From positions 2,275 through 66,274 of the forward strand of contig JANQQN010000190.1 of NCBI GenBank assembly GCA_028289325.1: a stretch of DNA of 64,000 nt, read 5' to 3'. The notes below the pieces were generated by a model. That model was not told where the DNA came from. It saw only the letters and a program-made list of their open reading frames with translations, and did not search any database. Positions 41,382 to 60,881 of this stretch are shown here, in pieces. Position 1 is the first letter of the stretch, and each line of letters starts with the position of its first letter. This stretch comes from Myxococcota bacterium (GTDB taxonomy: Bacteria; Myxococcota; Kuafuiibacteriia; Kuafuiibacteriales; Kuafuiibacteriaceae). The translations under genes and the position numbers were made by a program.

Positions 41382-41604
41382 GGGTGGACCGCCGTATCGA
41401 CATGCCCAGCGTCAGCGGCCAAGGCTCCGATGCGGCCCGCGCGTGCGAAATCCGTGCTGCGAGACGATCGATGTACGCTAGACCTCGGACATTCGCTGGC
41501 CCGAGGGGCTCGGCCAGGCTGGCGCGTCAACACCTCCTCAACACGCCCCGCAGACCATCTCCGCAACTGAGGGATCCGTGGGGTCCCGCAATTGGAGGCA
41601 TGTG

Positions 41605-42972
41605 ATGACGAAACCCCTTCTACTCTCGAAGCTGACGTTCACCTACTCGCTCCTTTTGATCGCGGCGTTCTGGACCGCGTGCACCGATTCGAGCTCGGCC
41701 CCCTCGGATGATGTCGATGCGGGGGTCGACGTCTCCGCGGAGGACGCCATCGGAGGGGGCGATGCGCCGGCCCCTCCGGCGATCGAGCTGACACCCAAGC
41801 TGTGTGACGATCCAAGCAACCTGCAGGCGGTCCTCGGATCGCTCGGCGCCGACGGCTCGACCGACGACGGGGGCGGCCTGGGCTTTGACGAGGATGAGCT
41901 GCAGAAGCTCATCGCGAACCCCACCGAGCGCTTCTATATGGTCAACCTCATCAAGTACCGCGAGCGAGCCGAATACGCGGACGGGCGCGAGACGGACCTC
42001 ACCGGCCGGGAAGCGAACGCCCTTTATGACCCGCTTCCCTTCATTCTGGCGATGGGCGGACGCATCGTCTACAACTCGGCCGTCGACCAACAGATCGATG
42101 GAGGCGACGACGTGGTCTGGGAAGACGTCGCCGTCGTGGAGTATCCCTGTCCGATCGGCTTCCTCGCCATGGTCACCAGCCCCGAGTTCGAGGAGACCCG
42201 GATCCACAAAGACGCGGGCGTCGAGACTACGCGCGTCATGTTCACGGCGCTGCAGCCGCTTCTGGCGCCCACGGATCCGGACCAGTCCGAGGCGGCATTC
42301 CCACCGACGGCCGAGGACCCGGCATTCGATCTCATCCACGTCATGGACTTCCACGACATCGCCCAGTACGAGCCGGACGCCAACGAGCCAGAGCGGACGG
42401 GTCAGGAAGCGTGGAACCTGTACCAATCCATCGGCAGCGGCGTGTCCACCGAGCTCGGGCACTACCCCACGGCCTCTTTTAAGGTGACCGGCACGTTGGT
42501 CGGTGAGAACAAAGGCTGGGACGAGATCCAGATTATCCACATGTCGAGCCAAGCCGGCTTCCAGGCGCTGCTCGACAACGAGACCCAGCAGGAGGGTCGC
42601 TACCATCGCTACGCTGCGTTGGCGGACAACGACTCAATGATCCTGTACCCGCAGATCTCGGCCATCCCGTACGTCGACGACGGCGGCGGGGGCCCGACGC
42701 TGCCCGAGGTGACTCCGAACGGGACCGGCACGGTCTGTCAGGAGGACGGCGACTGTCCGGATGCCAGCTTCATCTGCCTGTCGGACAGGGGCGCGGGGGG
42801 CTTCTGCACGCCCCAGGGCTGCGAGGCAGGGACCTGTGAGGGTTCGTACCTTTGCTGCCACGACTGCAACCCGGCGATGGTGAACCAGCTGCCGTTCGAG
42901 GGATCGGCGTGCTTCCCGGATGGGCTCACCCCCGCTCTGACCAACGCCCCGGCGTTTTGCACTTGCGACTGA
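41605..42972 (+). CDS. lipoprotein with two DUF1330-like domains and a Cys-rich C-terminal module
   Basis: GGAGG lies 6 nt before ATG 41605. Lipobox FWTAC. Two blocks resemble DUF1330 (FYMVNLIKYRE...WEDVAVVEYP; LIHVMDFHD...WDEIQIIHMSS). Eleven Cys in the last ~85 aa. Confidence 0.55.
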   Translation: MTKPLLLSKLTFTYSLLLIAAFWTACTDSSSAPSDDVDAGVDVSAEDAIGGGDAPAPPAIELTPKLCDDPSNLQAVLGSLGADGSTDDGGGLGFDEDELQKLIANPTERFYMVNLIKYRERAEYADGRETDLTGREANALYDPLPFILAMGGRIVYNSAVDQQIDGGDDVVWEDVAVVEYPCPIGFLAMVTSPEFEETRIHKDAGVETTRVMFTALQPLLAPTDPDQSEAAFPPTAEDPAFDLIHVMDFHDIAQYEPDANEPERTGQEAWNLYQSIGSGVSTELGHYPTASFKVTGTLVGENKGWDEIQIIHMSSQAGFQALLDNETQQEGRYHRYAALADNDSMILYPQISAIPYVDDGGGGPTLPEVTPNGTGTVCQEDGDCPDASFICLSDRGAGGFCTPQGCEAGTCEGSYLCCHDCNPAMVNQLPFEGSACFPDGLTPALTNAPAFCTCD

Positions 42973-43238
42973 TGAGCTGAGCGTACTTCGAAGAGTGGAA
43001 GGTCTGCTTCGCAGCGAATCGCTGCTGATGGGCTGCGACCTCAAATTCGATCGGACGGCGTCGTCGAGGCATGGGCCTGTCGCACTTGTCGATGCATACG
43101 CGCCCATGCGCGATCGGTGGGTGGCGGACGCATGGGAATCACCCGCCGAGAATTCGTCGCGGAACCGATCGTCATCAAGCCGTCACGACGACCCTTGCCC
43201 CTGCTTTGCCGGTACGCTAATCCCACGGAACCTCAAAA

Positions 43239-43355
<117 letters not shown>

Positions 43356-43494
43356 TCGGAATCGCACGGGATCGTCCACTCGACTTCGCTTCGCTTCGCC
43401 GCCGTTGTCGGCTTGGCTTTGCTTCGTCTTGTCCGTGGCTCCGAATGACCGTCGTGCGGTTGCCGAGAACCCCGGAAGGTAGATAATGGACTCG

Positions 43495-43830
43495 ATGCAC
43501 GAACACAGCTCGTCGCCGATTTTGCCCTAGCTCTTGCGGTCGCGGGCGTTACCGGAGTCGTTGCCCGGCGGTTTCGTCAGTCGACGATCCTGGCGTCCCC
43601 CGTTGCGGGTTTCGTCGTTGCTTTGATTGGCGACGCCCGAGGTCTCGAGCCAGTGCTTAGATCTGACGCAGAACGTATCGCGCGCGAGTTAGAGCGCGGC
43701 AGGGCGGTCCCGGGCTGTTCGCTAGACCCCCAAGCCGTGTCGGCGACAACACCGGCGTCGCCTTCCGTCACGCGCCGCTATGCACATTTCCGGGCTTCGA
43801 GGCGTACGCCGCGGCAGGTTCCCGCCGATC
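43495..43830 (+). pseudogene. remnant of CPA2 cation/proton antiporter (paralogue of 50576..52708)
   Basis: The first ~110 nt match 50576-50690 but carry a 1-nt indel and an in-frame TAG. They are joined directly to ~230 nt matching 52235-52460. Confidence 0.75.
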
Positions 43831-43928
43831 TCGCCGGTCCCGCCGCCTACGACGCCGCCCGAGCCTCTGGTCATCGAGCCCCCTGCTCAACCGACAACAT
43901 CTCCCGATAAGCACGGAGAGACCCTTTC

Positions 43929-45251
43929 GTGTTCCCGACGCATCATGGCCCAATACGACCGATGATCGAAGCACCTGATCTCCAAGTCCGTTCGCTGGGC
44001 GAGTGTCGATACGAGTCTCCCTATCGGAGCGATACGGGGCAGCGCTTCATTTCGGATGCTCAGAGGGTTCGACTCGAAGACGAAGTCGGACCGGACGTAA
44101 CGGGCTCGCAGGACGCATTGCTGGAGAAGGCCGGGCCGCGCGCCCGCATCTTCTTCGAGCCTGCTCGCACGACGGCGGCGATAGTCACCTGCGGGGGGCT
44201 TTCTCCCGGCCTCAACAACGTGATTCGCTCCATCGTGTTGGAGCTTAGAGAGAACTACGGCGTTGGCCGCGTTGTCGGCGTGCGCGATGGCTTTCGAGGG
44301 CTGAACCCCGACCAAGGCCGTCCTCTTCTGGAGCTGGACGACTCTGTGGTCAAGACCATCCATCACCTGGGGGGAACGATTCTCGGGAGCTCCCGCGGCA
44401 GTCAGGATGTCTCGGTCATGGCTGACTTCATCCAAGACGCCGATATCGACGTCCTGTTTTGTGTCGGTGGTGACGGTACGCAGCGCGGGGCCTGCGCGCT
44501 CAGTCAGGCGGTGCATGCCCGAGGTCGAGATACGGCCATCGTCGGCATACCCAAGACGATCGACAACGATATCCCCTACGTCTGGATGAGCTTCGGTTAC
44601 GCAACGGCCGTAGAGATCGCGCGACAAGTAGTGAGTGCCGCGTTCGTTGAAGCGGCCGGTGCCCCGAACGGTGTTGGTCTCGTCAAGTTGATGGGTCGCG
44701 ATGCAGGATTCATCGCCGCCGGCGCGGCCCTCGCGAGTCAGGATGCCGACTTTGTTTTGGTCCCCGAGACGCCGTTCCCTCTCGACGGAACCGACGGTCT
44801 GCTGGCGGAGGTCGAGCGTCGCGTTCAATCCCGTGGTCAAGCGGTGATCGTCGTTGCCGAAGGCGCCGGACAGCACCATTTCACTGAGGAGGCGACGACG
44901 ACGGATGCGTCCGGCAACTTGCGGCACCGGGACATTGGCGTGTTCCTCCGCCAGCGAATAGAAGCTCACTTCGCCGCCCGGGGCATGGAGCTCAACCTCA
45001 AGTACATCGATCCGAGCTACCTGATTCGCGGCGCGGCGGCCAACTCTTGGGATCGCATTCTCAGCGATCGAATGGCTCGAATGGCCGTTCATGCGGCAAT
45101 GGCGGGGAAGACCGAGGTCTTGATCGGCTACCACCACGAGACCTTCGTCCACGTTCCTATCTCCACTGCGGTCGCAAGCCGTCGTCGCATGAACCTTCAG
45201 AGCGACACGTGGTCCGCGGTGCTGGCCTGCACCCGGCAGCCGCGGTGGTGA
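43929..45251 (+). CDS. pfk: ATP-dependent 6-phosphofructokinase (long-form PfkA family)
   Basis: Motifs TCGGLSPGLNNVIR, GGDGT, PKTIDNDI and MGRDAG. GGDGT rather than GGDD suggests an ATP-type enzyme. ATG 43962 is an alternative start. Confidence 0.85.
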   Translation: MFPTHHGPIRPMIEAPDLQVRSLGECRYESPYRSDTGQRFISDAQRVRLEDEVGPDVTGSQDALLEKAGPRARIFFEPARTTAAIVTCGGLSPGLNNVIRSIVLELRENYGVGRVVGVRDGFRGLNPDQGRPLLELDDSVVKTIHHLGGTILGSSRGSQDVSVMADFIQDADIDVLFCVGGDGTQRGACALSQAVHARGRDTAIVGIPKTIDNDIPYVWMSFGYATAVEIARQVVSAAFVEAAGAPNGVGLVKLMGRDAGFIAAGAALASQDADFVLVPETPFPLDGTDGLLAEVERRVQSRGQAVIVVAEGAGQHHFTEEATTTDASGNLRHRDIGVFLRQRIEAHFAARGMELNLKYIDPSYLIRGAAANSWDRILSDRMARMAVHAAMAGKTEVLIGYHHETFVHVPISTAVASRRRMNLQSDTWSAVLACTRQPRW

Positions 45252-45326
45252 CGTTCTCCTCCGAACGATCTGCGTGCGATCCACAGACCGGAAGATGGCC
45301 GACGTTCGGCGTGAGCTCTCGCGATA

Positions 45327-45450
45327 GTTGCTTAGGCGTCTTCGCCGTCTTGAACCTCCGGCAGCCTTTGCGACGCACGTATAGTTGAACTGTGACCGAA
45401 GCGACCGGACCGCCTGCTTCGATGCACGCGGATACTTCAGCTTAGCCCGG
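45327..45450 (-). pseudogene. 3'-terminal remnant of CNNM/TlyC-type gene (paralogue of 59625..60881)
   Basis: About 75 nt are roughly 80% identical by eye to 59621-59695. The VQLY codons are conserved but the frame is broken. Confidence 0.6.
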
Positions 45451-45462
45451 ATGTGGTGCACC

Positions 45463-46527
45463 CTATGCACGAGCCATGGCGACGCCGGCTTCTGCCGTCG
45501 GCGCGTAGCCATCCGCACCCAGCAGTTGCCCAAGCTCGGGCGCGAACTCGAAAGCTTGTCCACCAACTAGAATTCGGCATCGCGAGCCGTCGGGTTGCTG
45601 ACGAATGCGCTCTAGCAGATCACGTGTTTGCAAGAGATTGAAGGGCATTGTTACGGAGATCACCAAGAGATCTGGCGACGTCTCGCGAAAGAAGCTGAGT
45701 AGGTCTTCCGTCGGTACATCACAGCCGAGTTGGCGGACTTGCCATCCGTCGGCCGCGAGCGCATCGGCGAGCATTGTTACCCCCAGTCCGTGATGTTCAT
45801 TTGGCCCCGTGGTGGCGATCGCGAGGCCCCGCGTCTGCTTCTGTTCTAGTATCAAGCGATACCAGTATGTTAATGCGCGCTGTGCTACGCTCGTCGCAAG
45901 GTGCTCGCGAGCGACCGAGAGGGTACCATATTCCCAACGCCGTCCGACCTCGTGCAGGGCAGGCCCGAGGGCACGGAAGTAGAAATCGAGTAGCGCATAC
46001 ACCGAGCCGATCTGGCCGTCTGCCATTCGAAGGACAACTTCGACGTCGCCGTGCACCATGCGGTCTACCAGGTCATCGAATCGCGGCTTCCAATCCTCGG
46101 CGATGCGCATTGGCGGAGGCACCCAAGCGCGAGCTTGAGCGAGATGCGCTTCGTGCTGAGACTCGAACCAGTCGTAGGCTTCGGCCAGCTCGGTCGAGAG
46201 CTGGAGCGGAAGACACTGGGCAAGCGCGAGTTTCCACGCCGCAAACTCAGCGAGGAAGTATCGCTCGCTAAATCCACGGGCCAGGTAGGTGCGGTAGACC
46301 CAGGGCACTACGCCGTCCAGGATTGACCAGGCACCGAAGCGGAAGACAGTGGTCATCGTTCTGTGATGATGTAGATGATTCATCTCCATCGTCGTGATCG
46401 CATTCGGACCGATCAGCGCCCTTCGGTCGGGATGTGATTGTAGACGCAGATTGACCTCTGCGACGAGTCGGCCGCCGTTGACCGCGTAGGCGTCTACCGC
46501 GGCGCTCGAGACCTTGACCTTCATCAT
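45463..46527 (-). CDS. cobalamin-binding protein with CarH-like light-sensing signature and unknown N-terminal domain
   Basis: 354 aa. W198-x9-E208-H209 (nt 45901-45936) and E244-x-H246-x-x-G249 (nt 45781-45798), followed by a Rossmann-like B12-binding domain. No MerR/HTH domain. Confidence 0.75.
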   Translation of the reverse strand: MMKVKVSSAAVDAYAVNGGRLVAEVNLRLQSHPDRRALIGPNAITTMEMNHLHHHRTMTTVFRFGAWSILDGVVPWVYRTYLARGFSERYFLAEFAAWKLALAQCLPLQLSTELAEAYDWFESQHEAHLAQARAWVPPPMRIAEDWKPRFDDLVDRMVHGDVEVVLRMADGQIGSVYALLDFYFRALGPALHEVGRRWEYGTLSVAREHLATSVAQRALTYWYRLILEQKQTRGLAIATTGPNEHHGLGVTMLADALAADGWQVRQLGCDVPTEDLLSFFRETSPDLLVISVTMPFNLLQTRDLLERIRQQPDGSRCRILVGGQAFEFAPELGQLLGADGYAPTAEAGVAMARA

Positions 46528-46998
46528 GAGGGGCGAAGATACAAGCCGCGACCTGATCTGGCTACTAAAGTGCAGGCGAATCGAACCCGTCGTATGCCCG
46601 GTATGCGCCGACTCTCAACGCAAGTATTCAGTGGATTGAGGGGACGAACCGTATCCGTTCGGCGTGTGGCGACGAAGCTCAATGAGTATTCAAGGCCAGT
46701 GCGGCGTCGAACACCTCATCATGGCTGCCACCGCGCTCACCGAGATGCGCACCCGGTCCGCCGTAGCCAGCGACCTCGCGGTGGTCATGGCCGGTAAAGA
46801 TCCACAACTGGGTAGGTTGGATGCACGGCATCTTGGAGGAGGTCGACCGCGCGTTGAGCCTCGCATTGGGGTCGAACCGCAATGCTCCCCTGATTATCGG
46901 AGGCTTTGGCGGATGCGCCGGCATCATCGACCCCATCAGCCCAGACGTAGACGTAGTCGCGGTCAGCCAGTGAGCGGCGTCCGAAGGCCTCGTAACCG

Positions 46999-48253: not shown

Positions 48254-48463
48254 AGCGAGTGCCTAAGCGGAATGCGAGGGCTTCGCGAACACGTGAATCC
48301 TGAGCATCGATCTTTGGCGTCGGTCATCGTCGCCTTGGCCATCTCTGGCGCTCGGCGCTAAAATGGGACTGATGGGTCGCCTCGCAGCTGCCTCCTGGCT
48401 GCGGAGCGACCCTTCCAGAATGTGCGCATCTGCCGGGCGACGGTTGCCAGCCTCGTCGGAAAG

Positions 48464-49735
48464 ATGAGCGCCGGGAGGAACCCGATGGATGCCACGATGA
48501 CCTTTGTGCTGGCGGGCGGGGAGGGACGCCGCCTCTATCCCCTGACCGCTGCTCGCGCCAAGCCTGCCGTCCACTTTGGGGCCCGCTACCGGCTTGTCGA
48601 CTTCGTGCTGTCGAACCTGTTGAACAGCGGCTTTCGGCGCATTCGTATCCTCACTCAGTACCGAGCAACCTCCCTCGTGGAGCACGTCGCGCGCTGGTGG
48701 CCGCTCGCTGCCAATATGGCGGACGAATACATCGAGGTCGTTCCTGCCAGCATGAACATCGGTCCGACCTGGTTTCGGGGCACCGCCGACGCGATCTGGC
48801 AGAACCTCGGCTTGTTGCGGGGCGCGCATGCCGACGACGTACTCATCTTTGGGGCCGACCACATCTACAAGATGGATATTCGCCTCATGCTCGACCATCA
48901 CCGCACGACGGGCGCGGACCTGACGGTCTCGACGGTATCAGTACCGCGCAGCACCGCTCGGGCTTTCGGTTGCGTCGCGGTCGACGGTCAAGGGTGGGTG
49001 CAGGGCTTCCTGGAGAAGCCTTCGGATCCCCCGGGGCTGCCCCAAGACCCCCAACGGACGCTCGTTTCGATGGGCAACTATATCTTCCGCACGTCGGCCC
49101 TGCTGGCGGAGCTTCGCCGCAACGCGGGCTCCGCCGGCACGACCCACGACTTCGGTCGCGACATCATGTCAAGCGCGCACGAGCGCCTGAAGGTCGCCGC
49201 CTACGATTTCAGCTCGCAGCTCTGCCCCGGAGAGAGCGAGCACGCCCGCGGCTACTGGCGCGACGTCGGGACGCTGGATTCGTTTCACGAAGCCAACATG
49301 GACCTGGTCTCGGTCGAGCCGCACCTCGACCTGTATAACGACCGCTGGCAGATCCGCGGCGCTCAACCGGCCGTCGGCCCGTGCAAGTTCGTATTCGCCG
49401 ATGACGAGGGCAATCGGGTCGGAACAGCGCTCGACTCGATCGTCGGCCTAGGGACCATCGTCTCCGGCGCGCATCTCGAGCGCACGGTCTGTTCTTCGCA
49501 GGTCCGTCTCAACAGCTATGCCGAGGTCGTGGACTCCGTACTTTTCCCGCGGGTGGAAGTCGGACGCAGAGCTCGCCTTCGCCGTTGCATTGTCGACAAG
49601 GGGGTTCGCATCCTGCCCGGCGACGTGATCGGCGAAGATCTCGAGCGCGACCGGGAGCGCTTCGCGGTGAGCGAGGGCGGCGTGGTCGTTGTCACGCGTG
49701 ATCATCTTGGTCAGCGAGACGAGTTCGACCTGTAG
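48464..49735 (+). CDS. glgC: glucose-1-phosphate adenylyltransferase
   Basis: Start set to ATG 48464. Motifs FVLAGGEGRRLYPLT..RAKPAV.FG..YRLVDF.LSN and a C-terminal left-handed beta-helix region. Confidence 0.9.
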   Translation: MSAGRNPMDATMTFVLAGGEGRRLYPLTAARAKPAVHFGARYRLVDFVLSNLLNSGFRRIRILTQYRATSLVEHVARWWPLAANMADEYIEVVPASMNIGPTWFRGTADAIWQNLGLLRGAHADDVLIFGADHIYKMDIRLMLDHHRTTGADLTVSTVSVPRSTARAFGCVAVDGQGWVQGFLEKPSDPPGLPQDPQRTLVSMGNYIFRTSALLAELRRNAGSAGTTHDFGRDIMSSAHERLKVAAYDFSSQLCPGESEHARGYWRDVGTLDSFHEANMDLVSVEPHLDLYNDRWQIRGAQPAVGPCKFVFADDEGNRVGTALDSIVGLGTIVSGAHLERTVCSSQVRLNSYAEVVDSVLFPRVEVGRRARLRRCIVDKGVRILPGDVIGEDLERDRERFAVSEGGVVVVTRDHLGQRDEFDL

Positions 49736-50455: not shown

Positions 50456-50575
50456 CGTCCACGACGACACCTGACTCGACTCGGCCGGCCAGTCAACACA
50501 TCGACTTTGCCCAACATGGGCCGCGCCGCCGCCGACACGGTTGCTGAGCGACGCGGAACCTAGATAATCGGCTTC

Positions 50576-52708
50576 ATGCATGGCGCCAGCTTTGTCGCCG
50601 ATTTTGCCCTGGTTCTTGCCGTCGCGGGGGTCACCGGCGTCGTGGCCCGGCGGTTCCGTCAGCCGACCATCCTTGCGTACCTTGTTGCGGGCTTCGTTGT
50701 CGGCCCGTACTTGCCCGTTCCCTTATTCGCAGACGCTGAGCGGGTCGAGGCGCTGGCGGAGTTCGGCGTTGTCTTGGTGATGTTCGCGATCGGCGTGGAG
50801 TTCAGCCTCGCCAAGCTGGTGCGTGTCCTACCGGTCAGCGGTCTCACGGGTATCATCCAGGTTGGTTTCTTGGCCTGGTGTGGATTTGCGGTCGCGACGA
50901 TGCTTGGATGGACGAAAGTCGAGTCCATCTTTCTGGCGTGCTCGCTTTCGATCTCGAGCACGATGATCGTGACCAGGGTGTTCGCTGAGCAGCCCGTCCC
51001 CGAAGACGTTCGGGCCAACGTGCTCGGCATTCTGGTCATTCAAGACGTTCTGGCCATCGTGATGATCGCGGCCCTGACCGGTGTCGCAGCCGGCAGCGGC
51101 CTGGCCCTCAATGCGCTCCTCATCGTGCTCGCGAAGCTGGCCGCGGTGCTCGTCGGGCTGTTGACCATCGGGCTGCTCATCGTTCCTCGGACGATTCGAT
51201 GGATCGATACGCTGCAGGCCGACGAGCCGCTCATCGTCTTCGTTATCGGTTTGTGTTTCAGCGTAGGGTACCTTGCGGAAGCCCTGGGCTACTCCGTCGC
51301 CTTGGGGGCCTTCGTCGCCGGAGTGCTGGTTGCAGAGTCGGACTGTGGCGAGCGAGTGGAGCACCTGATCGTGCCTCTGCGGGATATCTTCGGCGCCGTG
51401 TTCTTCGTTTCGGTCGGGATGAGCTTCGACCCTAGCTTGGTTCTCCCGTACCTTCCGACGGCCCTCGCTCTCACCGTCGTGGTGATCGTTGGCCACCTCG
51501 TCTCGGTCACTGCGGCCGGCGTATTGACGGGCGGGGGACTACGCAAATCTCTGTTCTCGGCGCTGTCGCTGGGCCAGATCGGGGAGTTCGCCTTCATCAT
51601 CGCGGCTCTGGGCATCGGTGCCGGCGTCGTTCACAAGAGTCTGCAGCCTATCTTGCTCATGGTGGCGGTCCTTACCGCGTTCACTACGCCGCTCATGATT
51701 CGCAGCGCCGCCACCGTGCTCCGATTCGTGGACCACCGGCTCCCTCGCCGCTTTCATCGATTGGTTGGTCTTTACGAACAGTGGTTCGCACGAGTGCGCA
51801 AAACGAGCTCGACGGGCGCCAATTCTGCGGGTCGAGCCGGTAAAGCGTTGCGCAACGTCGTTGTCGACGCCGCGGCGGCCGTCTTGCTCATCGCCATCAC
51901 CCTCTCGTGGTTCGAACAGCTCCACGCCGGGCTAAGCAAGTTGACGGGTTGGTCGGGGGAGCTGGTGAGCGCGACGATCTTCGGCGCATGCTTTGTCGGC
52001 GTGCTTCCTCTATTGTTCGGTCTTGCGCGGAGCGCTCTCACCCTCTCTGCGTCCGTCGCTGACCTGGTCGTCGAAGCCTCTCTCCCGGGTTCGTCGGGCC
52101 GTCGACTCGCACGACGTTTGGTGCGCTCAACCGTTCACATCGTCGTGACCCTGGCCGTCGGTATCCCGGCCGTGGCAGTACTGCGTCCCCAGTTGCCGGG
52201 GCCGTTTGGCCTGCCCATCGTTCTCGCCGTCGCAGCGGGCTTCGTCGTGGCTTTGATTCGCGACGCGCGCGGTCTGGAGCCGGAACTTCGATCGGGCGCC
52301 GAACGTATCGCGCGCGAGCTTGCAAGGCGCAGTAGGGCGGCGCCGGGCACGTCGTCAGGTGGCAAAGCCGCGTCGGCGCCCCCGCCGGCTGCGCCCGCAG
52401 CTACCAAGCGACCACTCGCATTTCCAGGCTTCGAGGCCGTGCGCCCGTGGAAGGTGCCCGCCGGTGCGCGCGCTGACGGAGCCACGTTGGCCGACATCGA
52501 TCTTCGCGCTGCCACCGGAGTCATCGTGCTCACGATTCAGCGCGGGAGCCAGCTCATCGCTCTGCCCACCGGCGTCGAGACTCTTCACGCCGGGGATGTT
52601 CTTGGACTCTGGGGGCCTCCCGCCGCCTTCGAGACCGCTCACGAGTTGTTGGACGGTACACCGCAGGAACCGGTCGACGGGTCCACAGCTCCCGACGTGA
52701 CTTCGTAG
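50576..52708 (+). CDS. CPA2-family cation/proton antiporter (Kef-like) with C-terminal TrkA-C domain
   Basis: 710 aa with about 12 or more TM segments. C-terminal TrkA-C-like block (ATLADIDLRAATGVIVLTIQRGSQLIALP...GDVLGLWG). Confidence 0.85.
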   Translation: MHGASFVADFALVLAVAGVTGVVARRFRQPTILAYLVAGFVVGPYLPVPLFADAERVEALAEFGVVLVMFAIGVEFSLAKLVRVLPVSGLTGIIQVGFLAWCGFAVATMLGWTKVESIFLACSLSISSTMIVTRVFAEQPVPEDVRANVLGILVIQDVLAIVMIAALTGVAAGSGLALNALLIVLAKLAAVLVGLLTIGLLIVPRTIRWIDTLQADEPLIVFVIGLCFSVGYLAEALGYSVALGAFVAGVLVAESDCGERVEHLIVPLRDIFGAVFFVSVGMSFDPSLVLPYLPTALALTVVVIVGHLVSVTAAGVLTGGGLRKSLFSALSLGQIGEFAFIIAALGIGAGVVHKSLQPILLMVAVLTAFTTPLMIRSAATVLRFVDHRLPRRFHRLVGLYEQWFARVRKTSSTGANSAGRAGKALRNVVVDAAAAVLLIAITLSWFEQLHAGLSKLTGWSGELVSATIFGACFVGVLPLLFGLARSALTLSASVADLVVEASLPGSSGRRLARRLVRSTVHIVVTLAVGIPAVAVLRPQLPGPFGLPIVLAVAAGFVVALIRDARGLEPELRSGAERIARELARRSRAAPGTSSGGKAASAPPPAAPAATKRPLAFPGFEAVRPWKVPAGARADGATLADIDLRAATGVIVLTIQRGSQLIALPTGVETLHAGDVLGLWGPPAAFETAHELLDGTPQEPVDGSTAPDVTS

Positions 52709-52810
52709 GGGCGGCACAGCGTTCGAGACTCTCCGCTTTGGCGCCCTGCCGGACCTGGAAGCTCGAGCTCTCGTCCTCGTATCGTTCCTCTTGACGCGCT
52801 CGGATAGTCC

Positions 52811-53752
52811 GTGCACCTGGACGCCGTGGAGACTTGGTTAGCCTCGCTGGGCATCACGGACTCGGTCATGGGGAAGCTCCTCGAGACCTTCTTCTTGCTC
52901 GGACTCCTTTATGCTGTGCGGGTGGCGGCCGTGCGGGCGCTGCGACAAGGCAACGGCCACGCGGAGACGCGACGGCGCTGGTTGGTGGGGATCCGCAACG
53001 CTAGCATCCTGATCTTTTTGTTTGCGACCGCCACGGTGTGGGCGGCGGAGCTAAGGACGTTTGCTCTGTCGTTGGTCGCTGTCGCCGCGGCGGTGGCGAT
53101 CGGCACCAAGGAGCTCATTCAGTGTCTGCTGGGCGGATTTTACCGAAGCTCGTCGCGTCTGTTCACTGTGGGCGACCGGATCGAGGTGGGATCTCACCGC
53201 GGCGACGTTATCGACATCACGCTCATGTCGACGACGATCCTCGAGGTCGGGCCGAAGACCGTTACCCATCAGCAGACGGGACGCGCGATCGTCATCCCGA
53301 ACTCCGACATTCTGAGCCATCCGGTGATCGTCGAAACGTACACCGACGACTTCGTGCTCCATACCTTCTCGGTTCCGGTGTCGCTGAAGAACGGCTGGTC
53401 GACGGCGCCCGAAGCGCTGCTTCGGGCCTGCGACGCCGAATGCGCTGAGTTCCTGCCGGATGCCCGTCGGCATTTCCAACAGCTCGGCCGGAAGAACGCG
53501 CTGGAAGTGCCGAGTCCCGAGCCGAGGGTGACGCTGCAGATCTCCAAGCCCGACGAGGTCGTGATGACGGCACGCATCCCGACGCCCGCGCGACGTAAGG
53601 GTCGGGTCGAGCAGCGGATCATCCAGCGCTTTCTGAAGGAATGGTTAGAGCCCCGATTCGCAGCGGCGGAGGCGCCTCCTTCTCCGCCGCCCGTGCCTTC
53701 TTCCCCGCCGCCTGTGCCTCCTTCCCCGCCGCCCGAACCCGCGTCGTCTTGA
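52811..53752 (+). CDS. mechanosensitive ion channel (MscS family) with Pro-rich C-terminal repeats
   Basis: GTG start and three TM segments. MscS beta-domain block FTVGDRIEVGSHRGDVIDITLMSTTILE. Confidence 0.8.
   Translation: MHLDAVETWLASLGITDSVMGKLLETFFLLGLLYAVRVAAVRALRQGNGHAETRRRWLVGIRNASILIFLFATATVWAAELRTFALSLVAVAAAVAIGTKELIQCLLGGFYRSSSRLFTVGDRIEVGSHRGDVIDITLMSTTILEVGPKTVTHQQTGRAIVIPNSDILSHPVIVETYTDDFVLHTFSVPVSLKNGWSTAPEALLRACDAECAEFLPDARRHFQQLGRKNALEVPSPEPRVTLQISKPDEVVMTARIPTPARRKGRVEQRIIQRFLKEWLEPRFAAAEAPPSPPPVPSSPPPVPPSPPPEPASS
53675..53737 (+). repeat. 3 x 21-nt imperfect tandem repeat inside the MscS gene
   Basis: Units are cctccttctccgccgcccgtg / ccttcttccccgccgcctgtg / cctccttccccgccgcccgaa, encoding PPSPPPV-PSSPPPV-PPSPPPE. 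Confidence 0.7.
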
Positions 53753-53796
53753 GCTTGGGCCCCAACATCTCCGCATCGGCTCGTGGCCGTCGCGTC

Positions 53797-54954
53797 CTAC
53801 CCTCGGAGGAGGCCGCCGATGCCGCCGAGCGCTTCCTCGATTACGGCCTGGCTCGTACTGCTGGCGAACACCAGGTTCACGGCATGTTGCGTCGCTAGTA
53901 TCGACAGAACATCCCCAAGCTCGACGCGGTCCGCCGACGCTGAATCCTCCGCGGACGGTGCCGTCACCGTCGATGCCTCGCTCACTGCGAGGTAGCCGGT
54001 CGTTGGATCCTGCCACAGCTCGGCCGACTTGCTGAGGGGCAAGAGCACCGTTTGGAGCCGGCCCTTCTGCCAAGCGCTGAGCGTGTCCCGCAGTCCTGTT
54101 ACGCCCGTCGCGCGGATCCGCTTGATGAGGTCTTGTTCGCGTCGATGCTTTAGTTCGCTCAGTGCATCCGCCAGCGCTTCCTGGAAGTGACCGGGGCTCG
54201 CGTCAGGATGGGTGACCCGAGCCCGCGTGATGCAGACGTTGGTCCGAACATCCGGAGGGAGCTGCTCCGCCACGCGGTCCGGTCCGTCGCCGGGCCCCGC
54301 GAGCACCGCGTGGTCCATCCGCTCGGCGAGAAGCACGTGCTCGAGCGCTCGCGCGGCGTCGGCGTAGAAGCGTCGCTCGGCCTCGTCGATGGACGCTCGC
54401 ATCATGGCGTTGCCTGGCCCACCGCGGTCCGCGATCCATAGCCCCCCCAACCCTTCGGCCGAGTGGTCGAGCGACGCGGCCGCGGCGAAAGATGGCGCAC
54501 GCGGTTGGGGTGCAAGCTCTTCTGCGTCGAGCGATGAGATTCGAAACAATCGCCACTGGTGGTGGTCGATGTACATCGCGACGAAGGTCTGGCCGCTCAC
54601 CGTCGCGTCGAGCAGCGGGGCGACGAAAGGCTCGCCCACCCGCACGAGTCCTGCACCGGATTGCGGGTGCGCGACGGCCATCAAGTTCGGCAGCGGTGTC
54701 ATCGCGAGTTGGCCCGTGCGCCGCTCGACAAAGATGGCGATCGCGGGCGTCGATGTCTGCGATTCGACGGCGGTCATGACCGCGTCTCGCGTATCGCGGT
54801 CCACGTCGGCGGCGTCGAGAGTACATTTGATATGAGTGAGAAGGTCCCTGTCGCCGTCCCGGCGCCGATCTTGGCCAGCGTATATGGACACGACCGGCGC
54901 CGTGAAGGCGCGCGCTCTTTCGACGGTCTGCTTGATTCTGTTTCTCTCGGTCAT
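53797..54954 (-). CDS. eRF1/Pelota-like (bacterial aeRF-type) protein
   Basis: Start set to ATG 54954. 385 aa, soluble. C-terminal GVTGLRDTLSAWQKGRLQTVLL resembles the G..v..AL..G.V..LL block of eRF1 domain 3. The central RGGPGN loop sits where GGQ would lie. Assignment is from memory and not searched. Confidence 0.4.
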   Translation of the reverse strand: MTERNRIKQTVERARAFTAPVVSIYAGQDRRRDGDRDLLTHIKCTLDAADVDRDTRDAVMTAVESQTSTPAIAIFVERRTGQLAMTPLPNLMAVAHPQSGAGLVRVGEPFVAPLLDATVSGQTFVAMYIDHHQWRLFRISSLDAEELAPQPRAPSFAAAASLDHSAEGLGGLWIADRGGPGNAMMRASIDEAERRFYADAARALEHVLLAERMDHAVLAGPGDGPDRVAEQLPPDVRTNVCITRARVTHPDASPGHFQEALADALSELKHRREQDLIKRIRATGVTGLRDTLSAWQKGRLQTVLLPLSKSAELWQDPTTGYLAVSEASTVTAPSAEDSASADRVELGDVLSILATQHAVNLVFASSTSQAVIEEALGGIGGLLRG

Positions 54955-55298
54955 GCTCGAGTGAGTGTCGCAACAACGATGCCAACGGGGAGTCCCGTAC
55001 CATGAGCTTCCGCGGCTTCGCGCAAAGTGCAGAACGACGGCCGTAGGAACCCCGGACCGGCCGCCGTGTGATCTCCGTCGGAAGCGTTCAATCCTGGTTG
55101 TACCGGTTAGCCACGCGTGGGGCACATTGACTCATCGCCGGACGCTCGTTGTTGCGCAGCGCGTCTGCGCCGTGGATAGCCGCTTCTTCGGTGACCCGCG
55201 TCGTGTCGGACCCGCCGGATCTGTGCCGGTGATGTACGTCTGAGGGCGCGTCGAAGTGGACTTCCTCTCTGGCACGCGACTTGAATATCTCGTTGGCC

Positions 55299-55580
55299 AT
55301 GAGCGAGAAACAGGAGTTGCAGAAACGATTCGACGCCGAGCGCAAGCACATCGAGGCGCTGATCGCCAACCTCGAGGCCAATGCGGAGGCGAAGAAGAAC
55401 GATACCGTCGACGCGGCCAAGGGCACCGTCGATGAGCTGCGAGGCAAGCTCGATGAAATGAAGAAAGCCGTGGCCGACGGCTGGGAAAGCGTGACCGAGG
55501 AGGGTGCGAGGCGCTTGAACGCTCTTCTCGAGCGGGTCAGGTCGTCTCAGAACGAAGAAGACGACCGCGACCGACGCTGA
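55299..55580 (+). CDS. 93-aa charged coiled-coil protein
   Basis: ATG 55299. Heptad-like Lys/Glu/Ala-rich sequence. No family assigned. Confidence 0.45.
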   Translation: MSEKQELQKRFDAERKHIEALIANLEANAEAKKNDTVDAAKGTVDELRGKLDEMKKAVADGWESVTEEGARRLNALLERVRSSQNEEDDRDRR

Positions 55581-55597
55581 CGCGGTGCTACCGGGAG

Positions 55598-55834
55598 ATG
55601 AGCGAAGAGGTTGGCCCGGTTGGTGCATCTCATAAGCCCATGAACGACACCGCGACCCACCCACCGAGCACACCACCGGACCGGAATCCTGCTGTCCCTG
55701 TCGAGCCGGAGATTCGGCCGCTAGAAGATCCGCCGACCGAGCCAGCGCCGCCGGTCCCGCCGCCTACGACACCGCCCGAGCCTCCGGTCATCGAGCCCCC
55801 TGTCCAGCCGACACCACCACCCGATGAGCACTGA
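55598..55834 (+). CDS. 78-aa acidic Pro-rich protein
   Basis: Sequence ...PPTEPAPPVPPPTTPPEPPVIEPPVQPTPPPDEH. Its last ~85 nt are conserved upstream of pfk in copy A, where the stop codon is lost. Confidence 0.35.
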   Translation: MSEEVGPVGASHKPMNDTATHPPSTPPDRNPAVPVEPEIRPLEDPPTEPAPPVPPPTTPPEPPVIEPPVQPTPPPDEH

Positions 55835-55845
55835 CAGACCCTTTC

Positions 55846-56941
55846 GTGTTCCCGGCGCGCCGTGGCCCAATACAACCGATGAACGAAGTACCGAACCTCG
55901 AAGTCCGTTCGCTTGGCGAGTGTCGATACGCGTCTCCCTACCGCAGCGATGCCGGGCATCGCTTCATCTCGGATGCTCAGAGGGTTCGACTCGAAGACGA
56001 AGTCGGACCGGACGCAACGGACTTGCACGACGCATTGCTGGAGAAGGCCGGTCCGCGCGCCCGCATCTTCTTCGAGCCTTCTCGCACGACGGCGGCGATA
56101 GTCACCTGCGGAGGTCTTTCTCCCGGCCTCAACAACGTGATTCGTTCCATCGTGTTGGAGCTTCGAGAGAACTACGGCGTCGGCCGCGTTGTCGGTGTAC
56201 GAGATGGCTTTCGAGGGCTGAACCCCAGCCAAGGGCGTCCGCTTCTGGAGCTGGACGGCTCTGAGGTCAAGACCATCCATCACTTGGGGGGAACGATTCT
56301 CGGGAGCTCGCGCGGCAGTCAGGATGTTTCGGTCATGGCGGACTTCATCCAGGATGCCGGTATCGACGTCCTGTTTTGTGTTGGCGGCGACGGCACGCAA
56401 CGCGGCGCCTGCGCGCTCAGTCAGGCGGTGCGGGCGCGAAATCGAGATACGGCCATCGTAGGTATACCCAAGACGATCGACAACGACATCCCCTACGTCT
56501 GGATGAGCTTCGGTTACGCAACGGCCGTGGAGATCGCGCGGCAAGTGGTGAGTGCCGCGTTCGTCGAAGCGGCCGGTGCCCCGAATGGTGTTGGCCTCGT
56601 CAGGCAACGTGCGGCACCAAGATATTGGCGTATTCCTCCGCCAGCGCATCGAAACTCATTTCGCTGCCCGGGGCATGGAGCTCAACCTCAAGTATATCGA
56701 TCCGAGCTACCTGATTCGCGGCGCGCCGGCCAACTCATGGGATCGCATTCTCAGCGATCGAATGGCTCGGATGGCCGTTCATGCGGCAATGGCGGGGAAG
56801 ACCGAGGTCTTGATCGGGTACCACCACGAGACCTTCGTCCACATTCCTATCCCTACTGCGGTCGCAAGTCGCCGTCGTATGAACCTTCGGAGCGACACGT
56901 GGTCCGCGGTGCTGGCCTGCACACGGCAGCCGCGATGGTGA
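55846..56941 (+). pseudogene. pfk: 6-phosphofructokinase pseudogene (227-nt internal deletion, frameshift)
   Basis: Co-linear with 43929..45251 (about 93% aa identity by eye) except that the equivalent of 44686-44912 is missing (junction 56602/56603). The length difference is 1323-1096 = 227 nt. The C-terminal part is readable only in the other frame (ORF 56552..56941). The MGRDAG region is lost. Confidence 0.85.
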
Positions 56942-57118
56942 TGTGGCCACCCATGGTCTTCGTTAGCATCACAGCCCGGAAGATGATCGACGTCCTGCGC
57001 GAACCCCTAGACATGGATTCCACGATTTACTTACCCCCCGATCCTTCGTAGCCTAAAATCCTTTGGGCTACGGTCATACTATAGCCGCGTCCGGCCGGAG
57101 TGAGGCGGCCAGACGTCC

Positions 57119-58552
57119 ATGATCGCGACTACAGTACTTTTGTCCGTTCTGAGCGTGGCGCAACCGTCGCATGTACCCCGGTCGCATGCACTTCTGAACG
57201 GCAGGGAGCTCGTGCCTAGCCGTTGGGCGGGTAGCCGCTGCTTCGCTCCCTCCGCGAATCCCTGGTGGCTTGTCGACACGACAGAGTGGCTCAGCGTTCG
57301 CGTCGACCACCGAACGCGATTTGAACACCTCGAGAACCAATTTAGGACCGAGCGGCGGGGGAGCGATAGTGCCCTTTCTCTGCGGACGATCATCGATGTC
57401 GAGGCTCGGTTTGCCTCCGTGCGGTTGAGGGCGGAGGTCATGGACTCTCGAATCTACTTCGTTGACGACAACACGCCGCTCGACACCGGGCTGGTCAACG
57501 CGCTCGAACCGCTTCAGTCCTTCGCGGGACTGCGCGTGCAAGGCGTGCTGCGTCCGGGGGACGCGCTCGACGTTCGACTCGGGCGGATGACGCTGAACCT
57601 TGGGAGCCGACGCCTCGTAGCGCGCAACCGTTTTCGCAACACGATCAATGCGTTCAACGGGATCGACGTCTCCTGGACGAGCCCCACGAACGACTCGACC
57701 CGCGCCTTCGTCACGCTGCCGGTGGCTCGCCGGCCGACGGATACGGAAGAGCTCGCCCTCAATCAAGTTCGCATAGACCGTGAATCTTTCGAGACGGTGT
57801 TCTGGGGGGTGTTCATGCGCTCCCGGCCGGTGTTCGACGGACTGCGCATCGAGGGTTACATCTTCGGACTTCATGAAAACGAGCCGACGACCCGGGAGCG
57901 GCAGCTGATCACCCCCGGTGTTCGGCTGATCCGAGCGCCGGCGCACGCCAAGCTCGACGGACAACTCGAGCTCGTCGTTCAAAGCGGGAGCAGCCTCGTT
58001 TCATCCGCCGCCGACGCCCGCACCCGCCTCGACCACCTTGCGTTCTTCCTGCACGGGACCGTAGGCTACACCCTCGACGCGCCATGGTCGCCTCGGCTGG
58101 CCGTGTTTTACGACTACGCGAGCGGGGACGGCGATCCGGACGATGATGTCGTCGGCCGGTTCGATACGCTGTTTGGCGCTCGTCGCTTCGAGTACGGCCC
58201 TACGGGGCTGCACGGCGCTTTCGCGCGGAGCAACATCAACACCCCGGGCGCGAAGCTCAGCGTACAGCCGATCTTGAACGCTGACGGCTTCTTCGGATAT
58301 CGCGCCGTTTGGCTCGCACAAAGCCGCGACGCGTGGACGACGGCGGGGATCCGCGATTCGACGGGCGCGTCGGGTGCGTTCGTGGGCCACCAGATCGAAG
58401 GGCGAATCCGGTGGAGGGTGGTCCCCGGCACCGTCGCCGTCGATGCAGGATTCGCGCACACCTGGCTCGGTCGATTCGCCCGCACGGCGCCGAACGCCAA
58501 CGGTGGAGGGGATCCGACATATGTCTACCTGCAGATCTCGCTGCAGACATGA
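57119..58552 (+). CDS. alginate-export (AlgE-like) outer-membrane beta-barrel
   Basis: 477 aa with a signal peptide. Blocks RVDHRTRFE...GRMTLNLGSRRLVARNRFRNT.NAF.G. Confidence 0.6.
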   Translation: MIATTVLLSVLSVAQPSHVPRSHALLNGRELVPSRWAGSRCFAPSANPWWLVDTTEWLSVRVDHRTRFEHLENQFRTERRGSDSALSLRTIIDVEARFASVRLRAEVMDSRIYFVDDNTPLDTGLVNALEPLQSFAGLRVQGVLRPGDALDVRLGRMTLNLGSRRLVARNRFRNTINAFNGIDVSWTSPTNDSTRAFVTLPVARRPTDTEELALNQVRIDRESFETVFWGVFMRSRPVFDGLRIEGYIFGLHENEPTTRERQLITPGVRLIRAPAHAKLDGQLELVVQSGSSLVSSAADARTRLDHLAFFLHGTVGYTLDAPWSPRLAVFYDYASGDGDPDDDVVGRFDTLFGARRFEYGPTGLHGAFARSNINTPGAKLSVQPILNADGFFGYRAVWLAQSRDAWTTAGIRDSTGASGAFVGHQIEGRIRWRVVPGTVAVDAGFAHTWLGRFARTAPNANGGGDPTYVYLQISLQT

Positions 58553-58922
58553 TCGGAGCCCAAAGCGGACGGATCCCGTATGACCGGTTGGGCGTACTTG
58601 CAGCTCAGCCTGCAGTGGATCGCCGATGCGCATTCTTCGAGCCGCGACGCACTGGCCGCGGGAATGAGGCTCGCGCTCGAGCCGTGAACGATCGAGCCGC
58701 CATGCGGCGAAGTATCGTACGATTCGCGGTCGGGCCGGGTGTTGGCCCGACCCAAGCCGTCGTCTGTCGACCGCGGCGGTGCGACCGCCCGCGCAGCGAG
58801 CGGCTGACTGGGGCCAAAAACCTCAGCTGTGGCGATCGGCCACGCCGAGCGCCGGGCTCGACGGCGATTTTCTTCGCGTCAGCGACTTCGTGGTTGGTAC
58901 ACAATGTGCTTTCGCTAACGTC

Positions 58923-59594
58923 ATGGGTGAACGCGAATCGGTTCCGGCTCTCACTGTCCATCCACGCGCGATCGGAAGCACTGAGAAGGGTCCGACCGCT
59001 TTGCTTCGGCTCGCCGGCGTGGCGTCTCTCGTCGCCGGTTGTACGACCCTGGAACCCCTGACCTCGTCATCGAGGGCCTCCGTCGCCGAAGACGTGACGT
59101 ATATGGCCGCAATCTGCCTGATCATCACCGGCTGCGGTCAACTTCTCGGGGCGATACGACTATGGGAACGGACGGGGAGCGGCGCGTTGATGAGCGGGGC
59201 GGCACTGAGCGTGTTCGCTGGTTTAGCCTGGACGGCGGGCCTTGCTGATGGGCCGGAACCGTGGATGCCCCTCGTTGCGGTTTCACTGACCGGCATTGGG
59301 CTCGCGCGATTCGCTTTGGCCATGCGCGTGAGATCATCGGACGGGCGAGTCCTCCTCGCCGTCGGCGCGGGGGCGGCCATCGGCGTTGGCATGATGCTGT
59401 TGCCGTTGCCCGTCGTGGAGTTTCATCGTGTCTGGCCGCCGGTTGGGCTCAATACGCTTCTCGCCGTAACCTTCCTCGCGCAGGGCTTGTGGCTCGTTGC
59501 GCGTGGTGCCGACTCTCTGCCTTGTCCCGGCATCGTCTCCACCCCGCGTCACATTCGCTGGGATGGCGCTTTCGAGCCCCGTTGCTTTCGCTGA
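58923..59594 (+). CDS. integral membrane protein, unknown family
   Basis: Start uncertain; ATG 58923 chosen. About six hydrophobic segments. Confidence 0.4.
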   Translation: MGERESVPALTVHPRAIGSTEKGPTALLRLAGVASLVAGCTTLEPLTSSSRASVAEDVTYMAAICLIITGCGQLLGAIRLWERTGSGALMSGAALSVFAGLAWTAGLADGPEPWMPLVAVSLTGIGLARFALAMRVRSSDGRVLLAVGAGAAIGVGMMLLPLPVVEFHRVWPPVGLNTLLAVTFLAQGLWLVARGADSLPCPGIVSTPRHIRWDGAFEPRCFR

Positions 59595-59624
59595 ATGCGT
59601 TCGAGACCGAGCGTCGATGGTTGC

Positions 59625-60881
59625 TCAGGCCTCTTCGTCGTCTTGAACTTCGGGCCGTCTTTGCGACGGCATGTATAGTTGAACGATGATCGAGGAGTTG
59701 GCGGGGGCTTCGGTGACCTTTGCTAGCGCCCCCTCGAGCTCGACTTGATCGCCCTGCTTGGGCACTCGCCCCAGCTTACTCATGAGAAGGCCAGAGAGCG
59801 TCACGACGCCGATTTCATAAAGATCGAGGCCGAGCTCTCGGTTGACCTTGGCGAGCGCGACGTTGCCTCGAATCGCATACCCTTCGGAGGTTTTGGTGAT
59901 CTCTGGTAGCTCGAGCTCGTGCTCGTCCTGAAGCGTGCCCACGATTTCTTCGAGAATATCCTTTAGAGTGACAAGCCCGGTAGTGACGCCGAACTCGTTC
60001 ACGACGAGAACCATCTGGCGGTGCGAGCGCTGCATCTCTCGAAGGACGCGACTGATATTGAGGCTCTCCGGCACGCGGGCGATGGGCCGAACCAACTCGG
60101 GGAGGCTGACCTCTGCGGAGAGATCGACACCCACCAGGTCTTTGGCGTGCAGTATGCCGAGCACGTTATCCAACGAACCCTTGCAGACGGGATATCGAGT
60201 GTGCCGGGTCGTGCTCCATAGCTCGGTGAGTTCGGATGCAGCCGCACCGGCATCGACGAAGCGGATTTCGTTTCGGGGTATCATGACCTGTACACAGGTG
60301 GTTTCCTCGAGGTGGAACGCCGACTCGAGAATCTGGAGCTCGCTCGAAGAGAGCTGCCCTGCTTTTCCGCCCAGACGAACCGAGGCCCGGATCTCGTCCT
60401 CGGTTACGAGCGGCGCGGACGTCTTGCCGGTGGCGAGGCTCGATAGCTTACGGGTGAACCAGATCGCAGGACTGAGGGCGCGGGAGAGAATCGCCAGAGG
60501 CCGAGCGGTGATCGGCCAAAGGACCTTCCAGTTCGACGCTCCGAACGTCTTGGGCAGGATTTCGGAAAGAAGGAGAATCAGCACTGTCAGCAATACAGAG
60601 AAGGCGGGCACGAAGCCTGCGCCGAGGACGCTCGCCGCATACATACCGGCGAACGTCGCGCCCGCCGTATTGGCTACGGTATTCAGAATCAGGATGGCCG
60701 AGGTTGGCGTCGCGACGTCCTTCTTCATCTTCAGCGTCAGATCCGCGGCTTGGCGATGACGGCCTTCGGCTCGGGCCGCTTCCAACGCGACGACCCGCGT
60801 GGAGTAGAAGCTCGCTTCGAGGAGAGAACAGATGGCGGACACGAGGAGCGTGGCGGCCACGACGAGGATCAAGATAGTCAT
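59625..60881 (-). CDS. CNNM/TlyC-family protein (DUF21 TM domain, CBS pair, CorC_HlyC)
   Basis: 418 aa with four N-terminal TM segments, a CBS pair and the C-terminal transporter-associated domain. Confidence 0.85.
   Translation of the reverse strand: MTILILVVAATLLVSAICSLLEASFYSTRVVALEAARAEGRHRQAADLTLKMKKDVATPTSAILILNTVANTAGATFAGMYAASVLGAGFVPAFSVLLTVLILLLSEILPKTFGASNWKVLWPITARPLAILSRALSPAIWFTRKLSSLATGKTSAPLVTEDEIRASVRLGGKAGQLSSSELQILESAFHLEETTCVQVMIPRNEIRFVDAGAAASELTELWSTTRHTRYPVCKGSLDNVLGILHAKDLVGVDLSAEVSLPELVRPIARVPESLNISRVLREMQRSHRQMVLVVNEFGVTTGLVTLKDILEEIVGTLQDEHELELPEITKTSEGYAIRGNVALAKVNRELGLDLYEIGVVTLSGLLMSKLGRVPKQGDQVELEGALAKVTEAPANSSIIVQLYMPSQRRPEVQDDEEA

Follow-up and report, generated by a model that had tools for sequence, protein, structure and literature searches.

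We analyzed a 64,000-nt stretch (here called the window) of a contig from an uncultured Myxococcota bacterium (GenBank assembly GCA_028289325.1; contig JANQQN010000190.1; positions 2,275 to 66,274 of the forward strand). Two related regions lie in it in the same orientation. The downstream region, copy B (50538..59684; plus strand), is a 9147-nt block that holds genes for a CPA2 cation:proton antiporter, an MscS-type mechanosensitive channel, and a baeRF protein, two small open reading frames (ORFs), a 6-phosphofructokinase gene (pfk), a gene for an outer-membrane protein, an ORF of unknown family, and the 3' end of a CNNM transporter gene. The upstream region, copy A (43457-45390; 1934 nt), starts 119 nt downstream of the tRNA-Sec gene selC (43239..43337; plus strand), which was recognized by ARAGORN and by Rfam family RF01852 (72.8 bits; gathering score, 47). 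A spacer of 5.1 kb separates copy A from copy B. Copy A is a deletion-shrunken, same-orientation second copy of the B block, and it carries the only intact pfk of the window.

A shortened second copy of a 9.1-kb block

A BLASTN comparison of positions 43000 to 46000 with the window, together with a comparison of the whole window with itself, yielded exactly five plus/plus matches and no other repeat for this region, and every piece of copy A maps to copy B in order. A previous inspection of the same DNA without database searches (the sequence-only reading) had described copy A as a chain of five B pieces in the same order and orientation, and the five collinear matches agree with it. Piece 1 (A 43457-43615) corresponds to B 50538-50697 (79% identity; E value, 8e-25), piece 2 (A 43605-43827) to B 52235-52463 (75%; 1e-18), piece 3 plus the 5' part of pfk (A 43832-44685) to B 55749-56602 (91%; 0), the 3' part of pfk (A 44908-45305) to B 56598-56993 (90%; 4e-142), and piece 5 (A 45322-45390) to B 59615-59684 (86%; 4e-13). 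The pfk match is split into two high-scoring segment pairs because copy A has 227 nt that are absent from copy B. Together, the pieces account for all of copy A apart from 4 to 16 nt at two of the junctions. The segments of B without a counterpart in A measure 1548, ~3285, and ~2610 nt, as expected from the ~1.55, 3.3, and 2.6 kb given earlier. The self-comparison that the sequence-only reading had suggested thus returned significant matches outside pfk as well (i.e., for the antiporter, Pro-rich-ORF, and CNNM fragments; E values of 4e-13 or lower). The right end had been placed too far downstream (45450; B 59790): the duplicated sequence stops at ~45390 (B 59684), about 60 nt shorter, and only a weak alignment (~62% identity) continues past it, to 45424.

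Copy A carries truncated fragments of the antiporter, Pro-rich-ORF, and CNNM genes, all of which are whole in copy B. For these three genes, A is clearly the derived, deleted copy.

The two phosphofructokinase genes

Several signs suggest that pfk A (43962..45251; plus strand) is functional, with an ATP-dependent 6-phosphofructokinase as its predicted product. The gene is intact. With translation from the ATG to which homologue starts align, its product has 429 aa; the longest ORF starts at GTG 43929 and encodes 440 aa. The translation scores 577.8 bits against NCBIfam NF005301 (ATP-dependent 6-phosphofructokinase; equivalog cutoff, 400) and covers positions 2 to 276 of the 277 in the Pfam PFK profile, compared with 2 to 157 for pfk B. 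It fits 154 of the 165 columns conserved at ≥95%, and the GGDGT, PKTIDND, and MGR motifs are all there. Homologues align over 96 to 99% of its length, and the best-scoring ones listed are 59 to 67% identical over that span, the few named among them being from Myxococcota and Planctomycetota. One exception to the conservation is residue 370 of the 440-aa ORF (45036-45038), which is Ala in pfk A and Pro in 39 of 39 outgroups and in pfk B (motif ...YLIRGAPANSWD...). In pfk B, residue 199 is Asn at a Gly that is invariant among the outgroups. Thus, pfk A resembles the NF005301 (PRK06830) type of ATP-dependent 6-phosphofructokinase in scoring above the equivalog cutoff, but it differs in this invariant Pro and in its setting: the closest homologues lie in sugar-metabolism clusters, while the gene described here lies among ion-transport and stress genes.

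The pfk of copy B (55879..56941; plus strand) is shifted out of frame after residue 252 of its long ORF. The 227 nt present in A (44686..44912; plus strand) are flanked there by CGTCA and CGTCC, and a single CGTCA is kept at the corresponding position in B (56598..56602; plus strand). Since 227 is not a multiple of three, the pfk B translation is nonsense past ...NGVGLV; its 113 C-terminal codons are still conserved, out of frame, and the downstream frame reads SGNVRHQDIG...RW before its stop codon. The stretch missing from B holds the MGR motif and dozens of columns conserved at ≥95%. Because homologues align over 96 to 99% of pfk A and because the missing stretch is highly conserved, the difference represents a deletion in B and not an insertion in A. 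On the basis of its reading frame, pfk B is classed as a pseudogene.

With pfk frameshifted in B and intact in A, the two copies have decayed reciprocally, and it is the collapsed copy that holds the window's sole intact pfk. The earlier description of copy A as a collapsed duplicate is therefore right for A, while copy B is not the intact master copy that it implied; likewise, the pfk that it called complete is so in A but lacks the 227 nt in B. For annotation purposes, the 401-aa ORF at 55846-57051 should become a pfk pseudogene, and 43962-45251 the functional pfk.

Gene content, relics, and deletion junctions

The antiporter gene of copy B (50576..52708; plus strand) is intact and encodes a CPA2 cation:proton antiporter with a TrkA_C domain (Pfam Na_H_Exchanger and TrkA_C; NCBIfam CPA2/YbaL-like), to which homologues align with 98 to 100% coverage. 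In copy A, its relics are found in two pieces. Piece 1 (plus strand) contains a promoter-like region (38 nt upstream) and relic antiporter codons 1 to 40, in which the loss of 1 nt after codon 5 disrupts the frame that begins at ATG 43495. Piece 2 (plus strand) is a relic of antiporter residues 554 to ~629, with its opening 28 codons in frame, followed by several indels. The next genes in B, encoding an MscS-type mechanosensitive channel (52811..53752; plus strand; Pfam MS_channel_2nd) and a baeRF protein that is weakly Rv2629-like (53797..55125; minus strand; Pfam baeRF_family10 and family2), have left no trace in A. The score of the latter against NF052289 (Rv2629-type hibernation factor) is a faint 35 bits, far below the cutoff of 320. 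Between the MscS gene and pfk B, there are a 99-aa coiled-coil ORF with a weak, subthreshold match to the sll1863 stress-protein family and a Pro-rich ORF of 78 aa (55598..55834; plus strand), which is represented in A by no more than its last ~28 codons. Piece 3 without pfk (43832..43961; plus strand; equivalent to B 55749-55878) consists of this Pro-rich tail, with its stop codon lost, and the sequence directly upstream of pfk. Downstream of pfk B lie a gene for an Alginate_exp-family outer-membrane protein (57119..58552; plus strand; no trace in A), the ORF of unknown family (58779-59594), and an intact CNNM/CBS/CorC_HlyC transporter gene (59625..60881; minus strand), only the 3' 60 nt of which fall within the duplicated block. 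Piece 5 (minus strand) is the relic of the last ~20 CNNM/CorC codons plus 10 nt downstream of the stop codon (SQRLPEVQDGEDA in A versus SQRRPEVQDDEEA in B, each followed by a stop).

A frame of 154 codons is open over relic pieces 1 to 3 (43449-43910). A chimeric small protein across this interval was considered and rejected: there is no ATG, GTG, or TTG start before TTG 43623, and the second half is out of frame with both parents. We judge the open frame to be a by-product of GC-rich sequence that was formerly coding.

At junction 1, the 11-nt repeat GCGGGCTTCGT is exact at both B breakpoints of the first gap (50687-50697 and 52235-52245), as the sequence-only reading had reported, and one copy is kept in A with one mismatch (GCGGGTTTCGT; 43605..43615; plus strand). 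Random position pairs in this sequence would share a microhomology of 11 nt or more with a probability of 7.5e-6; the repeat is one of just four 11-mer repeats within the antiporter gene, and the deletion removed exactly 516 codons. This is strong evidence that junction 1 arose by deletion between short direct repeats. The pfk B deletion has a 4-nt CGTC microhomology (probability of at least 4 nt, ~0.02). A repeat at both breakpoints with one copy kept was found at these two sites, junction 1 and the pfk B deletion. At junction 2, the breakpoints in B share CCGCCGGT and the CCCGCCG noted earlier (52457-52463 and 55756-55762), but the junction is not clean, as A has 4 to 9 extra nt, ATCT(CGCCG); 7- to 8-mers rich in CCG are common in this sequence. 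The breakpoint of junction 4 can be placed anywhere in A 45306-45321. Hence, the proposal of microhomology-mediated deletions is supported for junction 1, while junctions 2 and 4 are ambiguous.

Known deletions between short direct repeats (i.e., by RecA-independent slippage, illegitimate recombination, or alternative end joining) are alike in that one repeat copy remains, as do one 11-nt copy at junction 1 and one CGTC in pfk B. Deletions in bacterial pseudogenes have been found to be flanked by microhomologies and have been likened to alternative end joining (PMC6054270). Compared with the small indels of that study, the deletions described here are 0.2 to 3.3 kb, and two of the four junctions are without clean microhomology after ~25% divergence.

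The sequence in front of pfk A has two parts. About 130 nt of its own upstream sequence are kept and are more conserved than neutral sites, and the relic antiporter promoter lies ~470 nt upstream of the pfk A start. In the latter, a sigma-70-like TTGCCG-16-GATAAT (a consensus match only) is found at A 43460-43487, the sole such match in 2.4 kb (0.3 expected). Within 43480-43497 of A and 50561-50578 of B, a conserved TAGATAAT block stops 7 nt short of the antiporter ATG, and the antiporter mRNA may be leaderless or nearly so. Judging from this arrangement, read-through from the relic antiporter promoter into pfk A is plausible.

Several other features of the region were recorded. The antiporter, MscS, CNNM, baeRF, 99-aa, and 78-aa ORFs resemble an ion/osmotic stress neighborhood, an unusual setting for pfk. 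A glgC-type glucose-1-phosphate adenylyltransferase gene (48422-49735) lies in the 5.1-kb spacer, ~3 kb from pfk A, so that there is another sugar-metabolism gene near it. Just past copy A, 45463-46527 (minus strand) encodes a 354-aa protein with B12-binding_2 and B12-binding domains, of which the N-terminal 150 aa have no family match; its weak matches to CarH and corrinoid proteins are all far below the cutoffs. Upstream of selC, the ORFs at 41578-43107 (one of 464 aa on the plus strand and two, of 328 and 157 aa, on the minus strand) have no Pfam match, and the 464-aa ORF, the only one also compared with NCBIfam, has no match there either. No selA, selB, or selD is found beside selC in its immediate neighborhood, and a search of 42.5 to 61.5 kb with Rfam gave no structured RNA besides tRNA-Sec. 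The only other internal repeat of the window (18413-18569 versus 20169-20325; 157 nt; 75% identity) lies in the conserved signaling domain of two adjacent methyl-accepting chemotaxis protein genes (17026-19023 and 19040-20605), which are ordinary tandem paralogues.

Timing and origin of the two copies

Between pfk A and pfk B, the synonymous divergence (dS) is 0.25 to 0.26 and the nonsynonymous divergence (dN) is 0.03 to 0.045 (dN/dS, 0.11 to 0.18; Jukes-Cantor distance at fourfold sites, 0.23 to 0.25). The selection on pfk suggested by the sequence-only reading is thus borne out as purifying selection. The pfk section beyond the frameshift of B has a dN/dS of 0.106 and shows 7 nonsynonymous changes, versus an estimated ~30 had B drifted neutrally; because of this deficit, the frameshift in B appears recent relative to the divergence. 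The derived amino acid changes in pfk are balanced between the copies (5 in A and 7 in B; 39 outgroups). There is no asymmetry between weak and strong (W/S) substitutions in pfk; the one hint, AT enrichment in pfk B beyond the frameshift (12 versus 4 third-position sites; P = 0.08), fits pseudogene decay of B rather than a foreign origin of A.

Over 61 ungapped codons, the antiporter relics in A differ from B by 21 synonymous and 7 nonsynonymous changes (dN/dS, 0.10; dS, ~0.55). All seven amino acid changes (at V13, P30, Y35, L36, R562, E570, and G574) are derived in A and affect residues that vary little or not at all among 40 outgroup antiporters. This pattern fits a functional phase of the A antiporter that would have been followed by a shorter pseudogene phase of ~0.05 substitutions/site. 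Since the relic codons keep a dN/dS of ~0.1, the deletions probably did not follow soon after the duplication. Taken as sequence evidence, these values suggest that both copies were functional during a good part of their divergence and that the losses came late. The noncoding pieces have distances between 0.12 and 0.40. Divergence is ~12%, below that of neutral sites, in the 130 nt upstream of pfk (in piece 3), and the 60 nt downstream of pfk and the promoter piece have Jukes-Cantor distances of 0.37 to 0.40. No recent gene conversion between the pfk copies was seen, as the two longest identical stretches measure 46 and 47 nt, versus roughly 46 nt expected (9% divergence; 850 nt); an older conversion event is possible, as is a stronger constraint acting on pfk and its leader.

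For the comparison with relatives, 164 pfk-containing loci from genome and metagenome collections were used, and three contexts of the closest pfk homologues were fetched. In a tblastn search of these loci with 16 window proteins, one distant CNNM match was the only hit, and none of the loci has a neighboring gene in common with A or B. Identity to the nearest pfk homologues is 61 to 66% (the few named ones come from Myxococcota or deltaproteobacterial metagenome-assembled genomes), and the neighborhoods of two homologues (P0007 and P0017) are clusters of sugar-metabolism genes, among them those for GH65, aldolase, and pyruvate kinase. The nearest antiporter homologues are 66 to 70% identical, and their neighbors are unrelated.

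On balance, we consider a duplication followed by late short-repeat deletions in A and by the loss of pfk in B to be the best explanation, and one that is somewhat more probable than the rest taken together. In this scenario, the 9.1-kb block would have come to exist twice in direct orientation, the second copy, beside selC and 5.1 kb upstream, having most likely arisen by duplication within the same genome. An origin in the same genome appears most likely from the 5-kb spacing, the same orientation, the same composition, and the finding of nothing mobile at selC. Both copies would have worked over a good part of their divergence. Copy A would then have been stripped to pfk by at least three deletions (1548, ~3285, and ~2610 nt; the order of events is our reconstruction), at least one of them between 11-nt direct repeats, through either RecA-independent slippage or microhomology-mediated end joining. 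Later, pfk B would have lost 227 nt between CGTC repeats, shifting its frame. The outcome would be a reciprocal loss that leaves the window's only working ATP-dependent phosphofructokinase gene at the selC-proximal site, behind the relic antiporter promoter, which it may use, and ~130 nt of its own upstream sequence.

Several observations weigh against this explanation. Junctions 2 and 4 are without clean microhomology, and the lineage is sparsely sampled, with the nearest relatives too distant to polarize the events. A simple tandem duplication does not fit, since the copies lie apart and no homology is seen between their flanks; a larger tandem unit was also considered and rejected, as tblastx of the upstream flank, the 5.1-kb spacer, and the downstream flank gave scattered low-score noise. 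The dS values are uneven (~0.55 in the antiporter relics versus 0.25 in pfk; z of ~2.7 in a two-proportion comparison, with only 54 synonymous relic sites), and one simple duplication predicts otherwise unless there was extra gene conversion or a different constraint. The long coexistence of two functional 9-kb direct repeats is unusual in bacteria, and a copy that was imported already diverged explains it more naturally. Finally, the metagenome assembly may have incorporated a minority allele of B in which the 227 nt are deleted.

Some of these points lead to an import of copy A from a related lineage, either as an integrated circularized fragment or as a selC-targeted island whose integrase has since been lost, which is possible but in our estimation rather unlikely. 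The divergence would then have accumulated under purifying selection in the donor, the redundant A genes would have been quickly deleted and the resident pfk lost afterward, and the displacement of the native gene would now be seen midway. The antiporter relics, with a dN/dS of ~0.1 and a dS of ~0.55, indicate that most of the divergence occurred while the gene was functional, as for orthologues in separate lineages, and uneven dS among genes is normal for orthologues. Diverged repeats would also be shielded from homologous recombination and hence persist, while large identical direct repeats are unstable. The quick deletion of redundant genes accords with the fast purging of pseudogenes in free-living bacteria (PMC6054270). 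Moreover, copy A starts 119 nt downstream of a tRNA gene, the feature that it has in common with tRNA-gene (selC) genomic islands. Genes for tRNAs are classic integration sites. A selC genomic island was nevertheless rejected as a candidate, since the Pfam and NCBIfam searches revealed no integrase or recombinase among the ORFs on either side of selC, the 26-nt 3' end of selC has no second match in the window at ≤3 mismatches (an att repeat could sit outside the window), and there is no compositional shift. Matches to 18 nt of the selC 3' end with ≤2 mismatches are no more than chance would give; one of them, at 46572, is an inverted 12-nt match to the T arm. A foreign origin on the basis of composition was rejected as well: the G+C content is 0.62 to 0.64 across A, compared with 0.64 for the window, the third-position G+C content (GC3) of pfk A (0.72) is within the range of the neighboring genes, and A shows no asymmetry in G+C content, GC3, or substitution direction relative to B or the window. 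Unlike typical island cargo, the content of copy A is a copy of a neighboring chromosomal block. An import would further need a special mechanism to place the block, with matching orientation, 5 kb from its own homologue, and no donor-like sequence was found in any collection searched, in which the best pfk matches are 61 to 66% identical.

The strict collinearity of the pieces, the 11-nt microhomology at junction 1, and the 4- to 9-nt filler at junction 2, such as occurs at template-switch junctions, would also be accounted for if A had been made as a mosaic in one replication-based event by serial template switching (fork stalling and template switching/microhomology-mediated break-induced replication [FoSTeS/MMBIR]-like), with no full-length duplicate ever existing. 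We regard this as very unlikely. The antiporter pieces would have been dead from birth, and at least 16 nonsynonymous changes would then be expected in A (129 sites), but 7 are seen alongside 21 synonymous ones (Poisson P of ~0.01 or lower). The removal of exactly 516 codons at junction 1 is compatible with an ordinary deletion in a once-intact gene, and such template switching is, to our knowledge, poorly documented in bacteria. An assembly artifact (i.e., a chimeric or collapsed metagenome contig) or chance similarity is the least probable account, and we give it hardly any weight. The window appears to derive from one metagenome-type contig, observed only once; however, the A pieces are 9 to 25% different from B and so are not misplaced B reads, the longest identical run between A and B is 47 nt, both sides of the B deletion are of the B type, so that there is no A/B chimera, and E values reach 0.

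A broader interpretation, which we regard as doubtful, is that gene replacement is in progress in an uncultured Myxococcota-like bacterium. A diverged and possibly imported block would have been pruned to pfk, the resident pfk would have been recently inactivated, and the surviving pfk would sit on a captured, apparently leaderless-type antiporter promoter, rewiring glycolytic control toward an ion-stress regulon.

Under the duplication and late-deletion explanation that we prefer, the locus resembles the resolution of duplicate genes by reciprocal loss, in that there are two collinear copies, each of which keeps what the other lost, and a single functional pfk at a new position. It differs in that the loss is lopsided (A lost seven genes and B lost one) and is seen in one uncultured genome. 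All the elements (i.e., duplicate blocks, short-repeat deletion, purging, and reciprocal loss) are established biology, and no new system or mechanism is indicated. According to work cited in PMC6054270, bacterial pseudogenes are quickly purged. Here the relics are still so young that their junction sequences can be read and the phases dated from substitutions, which is uncommon because of such purging. Thus, the locus is a well-resolved natural example of bacterial gene order changing without mobile elements, in which a gene has come to lie in a new neighborhood, possibly behind a new promoter.

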